Part shown: piece by piece, positions 53,936 through 56,347 of the stretch
Position numbering within the stretch: the stretch's first letter is position 1
Layout of the letters: each line of letters begins with the position of its first letter
From: Pirellulales bacterium
Lineage (GTDB): Bacteria; Planctomycetota; Planctomycetia; Pirellulales; JADZDJ01
DNA length: 64,000 nt
Assembly (NCBI GenBank): GCA_035656635.1
Contig: DASRSD010000099.1
Span: 2-64,001 of the forward strand
Direction of reading: 5' to 3'
Program-made: the position numbers and the translations under genes
Notes under the pieces: model-generated
What the model was told of the DNA's origin: nothing
Databases searched by the model: none
The model's input: only the letters and a program-made list of their open reading frames with translations

Positions 53936-53940
53936 CTTAC

Positions 53941-53985
53941 TTCAAATCCACCGTCCAGTAGGCGTTGTCGACGAAGGTTTTTCGG
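53941..53985 (-). pseudogene. relic copy of the 3' end of the HNH endonuclease gene
   Basis: about 41/45 identical to 55718-55762; minus strand still reads KTFVDNAYWTVDLK-stop versus KTFVDSAYWTVDLK-stop in the intact gene. Confidence 0.8.
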
Positions 53986-54036: not shown

Positions 54037-54080
54037 ATTAAAACAGCGGCACCCCTGCGTGGCCGCAGAGGCTAAGCGGG
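54037..54080 (+). repeat. REP copy 1 (stem variant CTGCG/CGCAG)
   Basis: attaaaacagcggcacccCTGCGtggcCGCAGaggctaagcggg. Confidence 0.85.
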
Positions 54081-54135
54081 ATCGGCAGGGCGCGGCGGCG
54101 AAGGGGTGAATGGCTGCTGCGCGAACTAAGCCGGA

Positions 54136-54603
54136 TTACGCCACTGTGAAATCCCAGCCGGAAAGAACCAGGCTGGGCAGCAATTCGGGATTGTGGCTGA
54201 CGAGCTTGATTTCGATCGACCGCGGGCCGGCGGGAATTTTCAATTCCGCTTCGTAGGTGGCGCACCACTGCGTTTCGTCTTCGAACGGCTCCTCGGCCTG
54301 GTCGCGAGGAATGTAATCGTCGTCCACAAAGACCAACTCCTCAACCAGCTTGGCGGGCACCCAATCGGCGTGCGATTGCACATCGTCCTGATCGGTCGGG
54401 TTGTTGGGGTCGCCTATCCGCACGAAAATTTCCGCTTCGTCGAACGGGCCGTAAGAATTGGAATGCGTAATGCGGACCGTGGTGGGCCCGGCGGCGGTGG
54501 GCTGTTCCGGAATGGTGATGCCCTGTATTTCGGATTCGGCCGGCAGCTCCCAAAAGTTGGGCGAATCAGAAACCATTTTGTGCGTGGCGGCATTGGGGCT
54601 CAT
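54136..54603 (-). CDS. hypothetical acidic protein (passenger between REP copies)
   Basis: ATG at 54603 (MSPNAATHKMVSDSPNFWELP...); 155 aa; no family recognised. Confidence 0.5.
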   Translation of the reverse strand: MSPNAATHKMVSDSPNFWELPAESEIQGITIPEQPTAAGPTTVRITHSNSYGPFDEAEIFVRIGDPNNPTDQDDVQSHADWVPAKLVEELVFVDDDYIPRDQAEEPFEDETQWCATYEAELKIPAGPRSIEIKLVSHNPELLPSLVLSGWDFTVA

Positions 54604-54728
54604 ACGCGGTCCTCGCTGGTCAGTAAATGAGATGAGAATTTGAGACAGGACGCGAAGGCGAACGCCGGCTGTTATCGCGCGCGGCGAAGCCAGATGCAAG
54701 TGTTGTGGGACCGGGGAAATTAAAACAG

Positions 54729-54770
54729 ATTAAAACGGCAGGACCCCGCGTGGCCGCGGGGGCTAAGCGA
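54729..54770 (+). repeat. REP copy 2
   Basis: attaaaacggcaggaCCCCGCGtggcCGCGGGGgctaagcga; left end ATTAAAACAG duplicated at 54719-54728. Confidence 0.85.
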
Positions 54771-54922
54771 ATGAGTGGCGGGGGCTAAGCGGGTTCGGGG
54801 CAAAGCGGTATGATATGGGCCGCGAGGGCCAAGCGGGAGGATGGAGTGGCGAGGGGCAAAAAAATGAGGCGGTTGGAAATTCATGGTTAGCCCGGTCGGC
54901 CACGACCGGTGGAGCATTCGCA

Positions 54923-55630
54923 ATGTCGCGACCGGTAATTGGTTACCATTCGATTTTCGGCGCGTATGGATTTTGGCTTCCGAATGATCCCCGCGGGTCA
55001 TGGTCAGAGGTTGTGAAAGCCGAGCACTTGAAACCCTTTGGGGAACCGATTCATCCTGGCACGCGACACTCGGTTGCAAATCGAAAACACGATTCAGCCC
55101 TGCGGCTTGCGGCGAAACAACATCTGCTGCGGAAGAATGTCACATTCCGCGACGACCAAATTGAATGTCTGGCTGGCGGTTTTGGTGAATTGATCCGGCA
55201 AATAAAACTCGTCGTGTTTGCATTGGCGATCATGCCGGACCATGTGCACTTGGTTTATCCTCGACCCGAATGCGATGCGGAGGAATTTGTGGGCATGCTG
55301 AAGCGCGCGGGATCCAGGGCGCTGCGGAAAGCGGGGCTGCATCCGTTTGGCAAGGTCGATGATACCCGCGCGAAAGGTGAAAGCAGAACCGCTTGCGTGG
55401 ACGCGGGTGAAGCGGACGAAGAAATATCCCGCGTGGACGCGGGGGCTAAGCGGGAGAGGCGGTTGCCCACACCATGGGCCGAGAAAGCCTGGCACGTTTA
55501 TTTACACGACAAGCAGGAAATACGGCACAGGATTGGATACGTAGTGCAGAATCCCATCCAAGCGGGCAGGCCCGCGCAGCATTGGGATTTCGTGACGGCG
55601 TTTCACGATACGCCGCGTGGTTGCGGGTAA
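54923..55630 (+). CDS. REP-associated tyrosine transposase (RAYT; IS200-like Y1 HUH family)
   Basis: ATG at 54923 after GGAG; HUH motif MPDHVHLV; C-terminal catalytic-Tyr helix RIGYVVQNPIQAG; flanked by REPs. Confidence 0.8.
   Translation: MSRPVIGYHSIFGAYGFWLPNDPRGSWSEVVKAEHLKPFGEPIHPGTRHSVANRKHDSALRLAAKQHLLRKNVTFRDDQIECLAGGFGELIRQIKLVVFALAIMPDHVHLVYPRPECDAEEFVGMLKRAGSRALRKAGLHPFGKVDDTRAKGESRTACVDAGEADEEISRVDAGAKRERRLPTPWAEKAWHVYLHDKQEIRHRIGYVVQNPIQAGRPAQHWDFVTAFHDTPRGCG
55389..55454 (+). repeat. two REP copies inside the RAYT ORF
   Basis: ccgcttGCGTGGACGCgggtgaagcgg (55389-55415) and cCCGCGTGGACGCGGgggctaagcggg (55428-55454), translated ACVDAGEAD and SRVDAGAKR. Confidence 0.85.
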
Positions 55631-55632
55631 GG

Positions 55633-55715
55633 AAATAACCCCGCGTGGCCGCATGCGATTAATTCCCCGCGTGGCCGCGGGGGCTAAGCGGGATGACAGG
55701 TTGCGGGGGCTAAGC
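55633..55715 (+). repeat. REP copies 5 and 6 plus a half copy abutting the HNH stop codon
   Basis: aaataaCCCCGCGtggcCGCatgcg / attaattCCCCGCGtggcCGCGGGGgctaagcgg / gcgggggctaagc. Confidence 0.85.
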
Positions 55716-56347
55716 TATTTCAAATCGACGGTCCAGTAGGCGCTGTCGACGAAGGTTTTCCAGCTTTCGTACTTGGGGTTATCGAGCTTCACGGACAATA
55801 GCGGGCTGCGCTTCGGCTTAATTGGCGGGCGGACCAATTTCATGTGCGCTTCGTGCGGCGTGCGGCCCCCTTTGCGCACGTTGCAGTTGACGCAGGCGCA
55901 CACCACGTTTTCCCAACTGGTTTCGCCGCCGCGGCTGCGGGGCATGATGTGATCTAAGCTCAATTCGCTGGTTGGGAACACTTTGCCGCAATATTGGCAA
56001 TGGTTGCCGTCGCGGGCAAACAGATTGCGGCGGTTGAAGCGCAGCGTTTGCCGCGGCACTTTATCGTAAGAGAGCAGCCGGATGACGCGCGGGGCTTGCA
56101 GCTCGAAATTGACAGCGCGAATCCAATCTTCGTGCTGCTGCTTGCAGGCGGCCCGCATGGTGCTGATTTCCAACCAGGTTTCGAAGTTGTAGTTGGCGTA
56201 TTGGCCTTCTTCGAAATGAATGACTTCGGCCAGCTCGCGGAACAACAGTCCCAAGGCCCGGCGGACGTTGATGACGTGCACCGCCATGTAAAACCGGTTG
56301 AGCACCAACACGCTGGAACTAAGCCCGCCTTGAGCAAATGCCGTCAT
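55715..56347 (-). CDS. HNH endonuclease
   Basis: HCQYCGK...LSLDHIMPRSRGGETSWENVVCACVNCNVRKG (HNH with CxxC pairs); 210 aa. Confidence 0.88.
   Translation of the reverse strand: MTAFAQGGLSSSVLVLNRFYMAVHVINVRRALGLLFRELAEVIHFEEGQYANYNFETWLEISTMRAACKQQHEDWIRAVNFELQAPRVIRLLSYDKVPRQTLRFNRRNLFARDGNHCQYCGKVFPTSELSLDHIMPRSRGGETSWENVVCACVNCNVRKGGRTPHEAHMKLVRPPIKPKRSPLLSVKLDNPKYESWKTFVDSAYWTVDLK

Follow-up and report, generated by a model that had tools for sequence, protein, structure and literature searches.

In-frame insertions of repetitive extragenic palindromes (REPs) into the genes of REP-associated tyrosine transposases (RAYTs) were described by Quentin, Siguier, Chandler & Fichant 2018 (BMC Genomics 19:475; PMC6006769) in subclass 2.4 and in some subclass 2.8 RAYT genes, and the subclass 2.4 insertion region was modelled there as a peripheral extension. 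The same authors list Planctomycetes under class 3 only, with a Y motif ending in Q, and give Y---NP as the class 2 signature, the N at Y+4 acting as third metal ligand. In-frame REPs and Rickettsia palindromic elements (RPEs) within other genes were catalogued by Di Nocera et al. 2013 (PMC3733652); there, and in the work of Ogata et al. that it cites, they form segments of 20-80 residues in apparently functional proteins, often as dimers or clusters, and are thought to survive only in permissive loops. Here we describe a RAYT-like HUH/Y1 gene (54923..55630, plus strand; 235 aa plus stop) in a stretch of 64,000 nucleotides from a Pirellulales bacterium (assembly GCA_035656635.1, contig DASRSD010000099.1, positions 2 to 64,001; 'the window'), which carries REP copies within its own reading frame. 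The gene is probably a functional, vertically inherited RAYT, with cognate REPs that have entered, and are tolerated in, the linker between helix alphaC and strand beta4. Self-invasion is in kind already known, and the novelty implied by the original prediction, which was made from this DNA alone, does not hold, since in-frame REPs within RAYT genes are already in Quentin et al. What is added is that the insert lies in another loop and that it was gained convergently at least twice, each time with a REP specific to the clade.

The REP unit was defined by the consensus CCCGCG-TGGN-CGCGGG-GGCTAAGCGG. With three or fewer mismatches allowed, it was found at four sites in the window (54054, 54745, 55428 and 55666), all on the plus strand, and in 0/100 shuffled controls. 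Internal copy 2, with its flanks, occupies 55419..55462 (plus strand) and belongs to a 44-nt repeat family, D1. Its core at 55428-55453 reads CCCGCG-TGGA-CGCGGG-GGCTAAGCGG with no mismatch to the consensus, is translated as (EEIS)RVDAGAKR(ERR), and folds with a 6-bp stem at a centroid energy of -7.6 kcal/mol. Across 44 nt this unit is 82% identical to the 3′ flanking unit, and its A/T-rich 5′ flank (GAAAT...) is common to other units. Internal copy 1 (55389..55415, plus strand) is degenerate. It reads CCGCTT-GCG-TGGA-CGC-GGGTG-AAGCGG, translated as ACVDAGEA; an indel has changed its tail (GGGTG--AAGCGG), the core stem has 3 bp only, and the whole folds at -7.5 kcal/mol through the outer stem CCGCTT/AAGCGG. 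An exact 13-mer, GCGTGGACGCGGG, is common to copies 1 and 2 and occurs nowhere else in the window, nor in any of 100 shuffles. Very degenerate sequence at 55364..55377 (plus strand, ACCCGCGCGAAAGG) could be the remnant of a third REP 5′ arm, at low confidence, from a by-eye comparison with the orthologous ACCCGCGTG in L001, the closest of three insert-bearing orthologues (L001, L002 and L003).

Both internal copies, one perfect and one degenerate, are translated in frame (...ACVDAGEADEEISRVDAGAKRERR...), and the translation is that given in the original prediction. Two details of the prediction need amending. The spacing of 39 nt that it gave is right as a start-to-start distance and wrong as a gap, the hairpin cores being 36 nt (12 codons) apart; and the TGGA loop, which it had picked out as a special variant, is the commonest form elsewhere, the fourth loop position in 147 copies being A in 96, C in 28, T in 15 and G in 8. 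On the minus strand, the internal REP hairpin (55428-55443) followed by ATATTTCTTC (55418-55427) resembles an intrinsic terminator, and this site could stop antisense read-through from the HNH endonuclease gene that converges on the RAYT. It was the sole hit of a terminator scan, which showed no enrichment over shuffles; a promoter scan found no promoter-like site.

The position of the insertion was examined by an HMM (hidden Markov model)-anchored census of the stretch between LHPF and RLPTPW in 121 family proteins. This linker has 9 aa in 99 of the 121 and 16-78 aa in about 20; here it has 38 aa (residues 143-180, 55349..55462, plus strand). The roughly 29 extra residues (~87 nt) consist of one pristine and one degenerate REP unit. 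An AlphaFold2 model of moderate quality (mean pLDDT 75, pTM 0.72) has, in order, beta1 (7-14), helices 58-65 and 77-93, strands 100-103 and 107-113 (with the HUH motif at 107-109), helix alphaC (119-136), a low-confidence stretch, strand beta4 (190-194) and the Tyr helix (197-213, with Y206). Insert residues 150-159 and 163-177 have pLDDT below 50 and fall between helix 119-136 and strand 190-194; this places the insert in the alphaC-beta4 loop and predicts it to be disordered. Both the homologue alignment and the structure prediction bear out the placement first proposed, between the HUH core and the Tyr helix, and a REP-derived origin for the segment is supported by the sequence comparisons. 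The 9-codon linkers of insert-free genes share no consistent DNA motif, those of L133, L184 and L185 being REP-like (the 9-aa linker of L133 holds the REP-like string GCGGCGTGGCGGGCGG), and for this reason we claim no target site.

The identity of the gene was assessed as follows. The translation reads ...ESRTACVDAGEADEEISRVDAGAKRERRLPTPWAEKAWHVYL...IGYVVQNP..., as originally quoted, and the protein scores 25.5 bits against Pfam Y1_Tnp (above the cutoff of 23) and 46.2 bits against NCBIfam REP_Tyr_transpos (below the cutoff of 80). It has 2816 homologues, many of which carry the JGI name RayT. The HUH motif D106-H107-V108-H109 (55238..55249, plus strand) has D106, H107 and H109 invariant in the family alignment and lies on the model strand 107-113; the catalytic Tyr motif Y206-V-V-Q-N210-P211 (Y---NP; 55538..55555, plus strand) has Y206, N210 and P211 invariant and lies on the model helix 197-213. 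By its Y---NP signature the predicted enzyme belongs to class 2. In the PDB, Foldseek ranked 4er8_A first (E 9.9e-5, TM to target 0.53), a structure of the E. coli RAYT-REP complex, with ISDra2 and IS608 TnpA next. A family-profile sequence search of the PDB gave weak matches only (E 1e-4 to 6e-4), to ISDra2 TnpA and 4ER8, and membership of the RAYTs is accordingly taken from motifs, fold and context. The native length is 197 aa, and the location of the gene is syntenic. In the 64 kb it is present once, as a search of every window ORF (open reading frame) by HMM found no second RAYT.

The start codon is ambiguous, with candidates at 54815, 54923 and 55013. The longest ORF begins at ATG 54815, a start that would put the upstream REP cluster into the protein. 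In the public gene call (P0001, 205 aa) the start is GTG 55013, and the conserved N-terminal strand and the YGFWLPNDPRGSWS motif are lost. We chose ATG 54923 (MSRPVIGYH...) by homology, the N-termini of P0003 and P0004 aligning from MSRP in agreement with this start.

Four described systems resemble the locus in different respects. In subclass 2.4 (Bertels group 4), as here, cognate REPs both flank the RAYT gene and lie within it. However, the motifs here are DHVH / WH / YVVQNP (family-wide, W[KHRQ] and YVExNP) and those of subclass 2.4 are NH[IFV]H / WQ / YIxNNP; the insert here is in the alphaC-beta4 loop and that of subclass 2.4 in beta3-alphaC (Figure S7 legend, PMC6006769); the REP foot here is TTAG (CTAA on the plus strand in most copies) and there GT[AG]G; and the hosts here are Planctomycetota, those of subclass 2.4 mainly Cyanobacteria and Bacteroidetes. 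A further difference is the evidence given here that the insert was gained independently two or more times, with a clade-specific REP in each case. The gene works like the subclass 2.4 cases and is outside that subclass. With E. coli TnpA_REP (subclass 2.2, PDB 4ER8; Messing et al. 2012, PMC3479197) the gene has in common the HUH/Y1 fold, Y---NP with N at Y+4, inverted flanking REPs and a hairpin with a tetranucleotide foot. The E. coli protein differs in being only ~10% identical in sequence and in having no internal REP; its REP has a GTAG foot and a long, bulged hairpin, whereas that described here has a TTAG foot, a perfect stem of 6-7 bp and a 4-nt loop, and a long N-terminal segment (YGFWLPNDPRGSWS...) is conserved in the family here. 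The IS200/IS605 TnpA proteins (IS608, ISDra2) are alike in HUH/Y1 fold and, as far as sequence indicates, in hairpin-recognising single-strand DNA chemistry. These (subclass 1.1) have Y---Q, are ~150 aa long, are encoded by multi-copy insertion sequences with subterminal hairpins and are obligate dimers, whereas the present gene has Y---NP, one copy in 64 kb and a syntenic location. Intragenic REPs and RPEs, finally, are likewise small palindromic repeats translated in frame. Their hosts are unrelated housekeeping genes, many of DNA repair or replication; in the present case the repeats sit in the very gene thought to mobilise them, at a site that recurs across clades.

This recurrence was followed in related loci. 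Clade A comprises the window gene and P0002-P0006, with 63-71% BLASTP identity. Its linkers hold different numbers of REP units: two full units plus degenerate ones in L001 (SRVGAGAK, PRVAAGAK, VNAGAK), one full and one half unit in L002 (RVDAAAK, DAAAK), one degenerate and one perfect unit in L003 (SVDAANK, RVDAGAK) and one unit in L205 (PRVAAGPK). In these four loci, one to three REP units of the type seen in the window (REP-A) share both the site and the reading frame (RV[DGA]A[GA]AK). The linker of L204 has 9 residues that are themselves the remnant of a REP 3′ half (DAAPKQDR). Outside clade A, the linker of L206 (P0007) has one unit in phase with a diverged, complementary stem (CACGTCG-TGGA-CGACGTG-GCTAAGCG, HVVDDVAK). 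A distant lineage, clade B, is about 45% identical and has a different cognate REP (REP-B), CGCCGCGTGGGCGCGGCGGTTAACCC(A/C)GGCG.CCACGCCGG, which flanks the gene in L124, L128 and L131 and is also found within the same linker, in frame (RRVGAAVNPG.HAG). In L124 (800-885) the linker has three tandem 21-nt units (CGCCGCGTGGGCGCGCAGATA), a local in-frame amplification of a truncated REP hairpin. Clade B loci came from a search of metagenome contigs for closer relatives; it added no member to clade A, and its best matches were only 46-47% identical.

In a bootstrapped neighbour-joining tree, clades A and B had 100% and 97% support, respectively, they were monophyletic together in 0/100 replicates, and insert-free lineages fell between them. 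Therefore, the insert was gained independently at least twice at one loop. It has also been lost or contracted within both clades (P0005 in one; P0080 and P0103 in the other). All recognisable internal copies share one reading phase with respect to the hairpin, although a second of the three frames is open as well. The type of REP inside each insert, at the coarse level of REP-A against REP-B, matches the type flanking that clade's gene, and we found no equivalent peptide in a REP-free homologue. Such a peptide is what the original prediction had named as its refutation, and the outcome is in its favour. At a finer level, the sequence CGCGG[G/C]GGCTAA and the loop variants match between internal and flanking copies in the window, L002 and L003 and are mixed in L001, L205 and L206; for this reason we use only the coarse match as evidence.

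The integrity of the gene was assessed by comparing its core with those of L001, L002 and L003, all insert-bearing orthologues, to which it has 79%, 71% and 69% nucleotide identity. Core dN/dS was 0.06-0.13 between the window gene and the orthologues and 0.06-0.21 over all pairs, with synonymous sites close to saturation (pS, the proportion of synonymous differences, 0.53-0.76). Since these values are low among genes that all bear inserts, selection acted while the inserts were present. In a DNA-level analysis, a frame break at the linker was seen in 0/88 loci. The original prediction had left two choices, that the enzyme tolerates a REP-encoded loop or that the gene is a recently inactivated copy. 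Intact motifs, low dN/dS, the disordered loop and the unbroken linkers support the first; the open frame, the motifs and purifying selection speak against the second.

We would explain the locus as follows. The gene would encode a RAYT-type HUH/Tyr single-strand DNA nuclease/transposase, and REP hairpins cognate to it are clustered around the gene (a REPtron). From the dense clusters beside the gene, cognate units would have come into the coding sequence at the short alphaC-beta4 linker, either by RAYT-mediated insertion in cis or by recombination or gene conversion with the flanking REPs. Only in-frame, stop-free copies would persist, because the linker, unlike the rest of this small protein, is predicted to be a disordered surface loop that tolerates extra residues. 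The internal units may then amplify in multiples of three and decay, giving variable linker length and copy number, and we infer that the extra peptide is functionally neutral.

Several observations weigh against this explanation. The L003 orthologue has a 2-nt frameshift (824-836) near codon 22, in GACCCGCG(CG)GATCGTGG; it is the only defect seen, and is either that of a decaying copy or an assembly error in the CG repeat. The word 'functional' reflects conservation of sequence and should be read as a prediction. The 3′-most internal copy is at consensus across genes with saturated synonymous sites, which needs recent re-insertion, gene conversion or a DNA-level constraint beyond passive tolerance. 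That a single phase is used out of two open frames may point to insertion at a specific site or phase, more than to random insertion with later filtering. Nor does the alphaC-beta4 loop clearly lie far from DNA: the residues that flank it on both sides in E. coli TnpA_REP (K82 and R78; W94, Q95 and R97) touch the REP hairpin and the GTAG foot (PMC3479197), and Quentin et al. describe the alphaC-beta4 region as 'neighboring' hairpin recognition (PMC6006769). Because DNA-contacting regions bracket the loop in the E. coli protein, neutrality of the inserted peptide is not assured and, by analogy, an effect on DNA binding is conceivable. Lastly, no REP copies away from the RAYT neighbourhood were found in the 64-kb window, and dispersal in this particular genome is accordingly inferred.

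The alternative that fares best, though itself rather unlikely, is that the internal REPs have been co-opted, either as a DNA- or RNA-level cis site for self-regulation (via RAYT or the transcription or RNA-decay machinery) or as a basic REP-encoded peptide that, lying beside the DNA-contact region, tunes REP recognition; it overlaps with the tolerated-entry explanation and does not exclude it. The 3′-most unit is identical at 26/26 positions between copy 2 of the window gene and the internal copy of L003, the gene cores of which have only 68.5% nucleotide identity. The insert has also persisted while clade A and clade B each diverged, the loop is next to the W motif and to those alphaC residues that touch DNA in 4ER8, the unit on the minus strand resembles a hairpin plus T-rich terminator, and the ribosome-binding region likewise has a conserved REP hairpin directly beside it. 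However, the insert is predicted to be disordered, the terminator scan was without enrichment, and a copy recently re-inserted out of the genomic pool would also be identical to consensus. In addition, 99 of the 121 family members do without the insert and both clades have members that lost or contracted it, and its length, copy number and peptide sequence vary freely while older copies decay.

Doubtful in our view is the further proposal that the alphaC-beta4 linker is a self-targeting hot spot, at which the enzyme, acting in cis, keeps inserting or renewing its cognate REP at a single nucleotide phase. Such a hot spot would account for the same site and frame in non-sister clades with different REPs and for the consensus state of the 3′-most copy. 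The original prediction had likewise held that the element targets its own mobilising gene, which is plausible; recurrence in two clades fits a hot spot, and fits equally a selective filter on insertions arriving from the adjacent REP clusters. If the hot spot were real, the linker would be a natural, selectable record of REP insertion specificity and possibly a feedback device, REP activity altering the DNA-contact neighbourhood or the expression of the enzyme.

It is very unlikely that invading REPs have recently disrupted and inactivated this RAYT, leaving a pseudogene. An insertion of ~87 nt between the two catalytic motifs of a 200-residue enzyme, the L003 frameshift and the NCBIfam score below cutoff would fit such a state, but the insert is in a loop, the frame is open, the HUH, Y, N and P residues are intact, the core shows low dN/dS against insert-bearing orthologues, and there are about 20 in-frame cases, in two clades, and none out of frame. 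Hardly credible is the reverse direction, a REP family born from a stretch of the RAYT gene, or chance similarity in GC-rich coding sequence: the hairpin is GC-rich like the gene and some insert-free 9-aa linkers are REP-like (L133), but no shuffle gave a match, the homology reaches into the A/T-rich unit flanks, most family members lack the segment though their genomes carry the REP (L102 and its metagenome-assembled genome, MAG), and two different REPs stand at the same site in two clades. Chance similarity is refuted by the shuffles and by the homology into the flanks; an origin of the REP from the gene is rejected, the insert not being ancestral in the family tree.

The REPs around the gene are arranged in inverted orientation, as in a REPtron, with a hairpin at 54887-54909 facing opposite units at 55613-55716. 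This 5′ REP (54887..54909, TTAG-foot orientation, given as read on the plus strand) has the sequence TTAGCC-CGGTCG-GCCA-CGACCG-G, lies 14 nt before the ATG and abuts GGAG. Its hairpin folds at -8.9 kcal/mol (z -2.5), forms the inverted-repeat pairs I2 and I3, and has a canonical counterpart in L102. The hairpin is kept upstream of the orthologues L001, L002, L003, L205 and L206, the foot and the GCCA/TCCA loop being constant; the stems differ yet remain complementary (CGGTCG/CGACCG here, CCCTCG/CGAGGG in L206 and, further upstream, CGCTCG/CGAGCG in L204). From these comparisons it looks like a structure-conserved 5′ REP that may be regulatory. The 5′ flanking cluster (54744..54841, plus strand) has a full unit at 54744-54770, tail-only units at 54775-54792 and 54797-54807, and a degenerate unit at 54818-54841. 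A more distant upstream unit (54052..54103, plus strand) has three mismatches and 83% identity over 52 nt to 55665-55714. On the 3′ side, the flanking cluster (55638..55716, plus strand) has a partial unit at 55638-55653, a full unit at 55665-55691 and a 3′ half-unit at 55700-55716.

A degenerate REP also spans the 3′ end of the gene (55613..55632, plus strand, CCGCGTGGTTGCGGGTAAGG); with one mismatch to the hairpin pattern, it encodes PRGCG and gives the TAA stop. REPs supply the C-terminus and stop of many RAYTs in the family. About 19 of 120 proteins end in PRGRGG (CCG CGT GGC CGC GGG GGC TAA), and REP-supplied gene ends are found at L102 6087-6109, L205 707-733 and L204 777-800, where the L204 gene ends at the TAG of a GCTTAGCC foot in the opposite orientation.

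Converging on the RAYT is a gene for an HNH endonuclease of 210 aa (55715-56347, minus strand; HNH_5, 63 bits), with weak partial matches to the HNH domains of IscB and Cas9. It is a conserved neighbour also in L002 and L003, which suggests vertical inheritance. Between the two genes, the REP units with an A/T-rich flank would, on the HNH strand, read as a hairpin followed by a run of T. The 3′ end of the HNH gene (KTFVDNAYWTVDLK*) has a 44-nt, 91% identical copy 1.78 kb upstream (53938-53981 against 55716-55759), and the interval between them holds the RAYT, REPs and a 187-aa ORF (54136-54699, minus strand). The REP/RAYT cassette may thus have been involved in a rearrangement or duplication here.

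Beyond the window, the pattern CCGCGTGGNCGCGGNGGCTAA was found in at least 120 stretches of the genome collection, almost all from Planctomycetota MAGs (Pirellulales, Planctomycetaceae, Phycisphaerae). Among the matches listed, several MAGs had 6-10 separate REP sites, and there were 17 inverted REP pairs, most often spaced by 46 nt, which are REPIN-like. L102, from a Phycisphaerae MAG, has an insert-free family RAYT with TTAGCCCCCGCGGCCACGCGGGG before it and a reverse-oriented CCCCGCGTGGCCGCGGGGGCTAA after it, overlapping the stop codon. Of the 147 dispersed copies, 35 lie inside stop-to-stop ORFs of at least 200 aa, a count in which, without gene calls, true coding sequences are inseparable from upstream extensions and antisense ORFs. 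The same 21-nt REP core (loci L004-L123) occurs in Planctomycetia and Phycisphaerae, the RAYTs of which are only ~45-50% identical, and this is unusually broad for a REP. One match (L096) is in a MAG labelled Gammaproteobacteria, where mis-binning or transfer is possible.

For annotation, the locus shows that gene callers mis-start the RAYT-like gene and that REPs supply its stop codon. The copying and landing sites of REPs and REPINs are poorly understood because insertion events are rarely caught, and a RAYT family in which REPs have repeatedly entered the enzyme's own loop is a compact comparative system for site specificity, cis preference and the alterability of the alphaC-beta4 loop. The 2018 observation now reaches beyond its original subclass and loop and into a deep-branching phylum, which suggests that self-invasion is general to REP-RAYT systems and not the quirk of one subclass.

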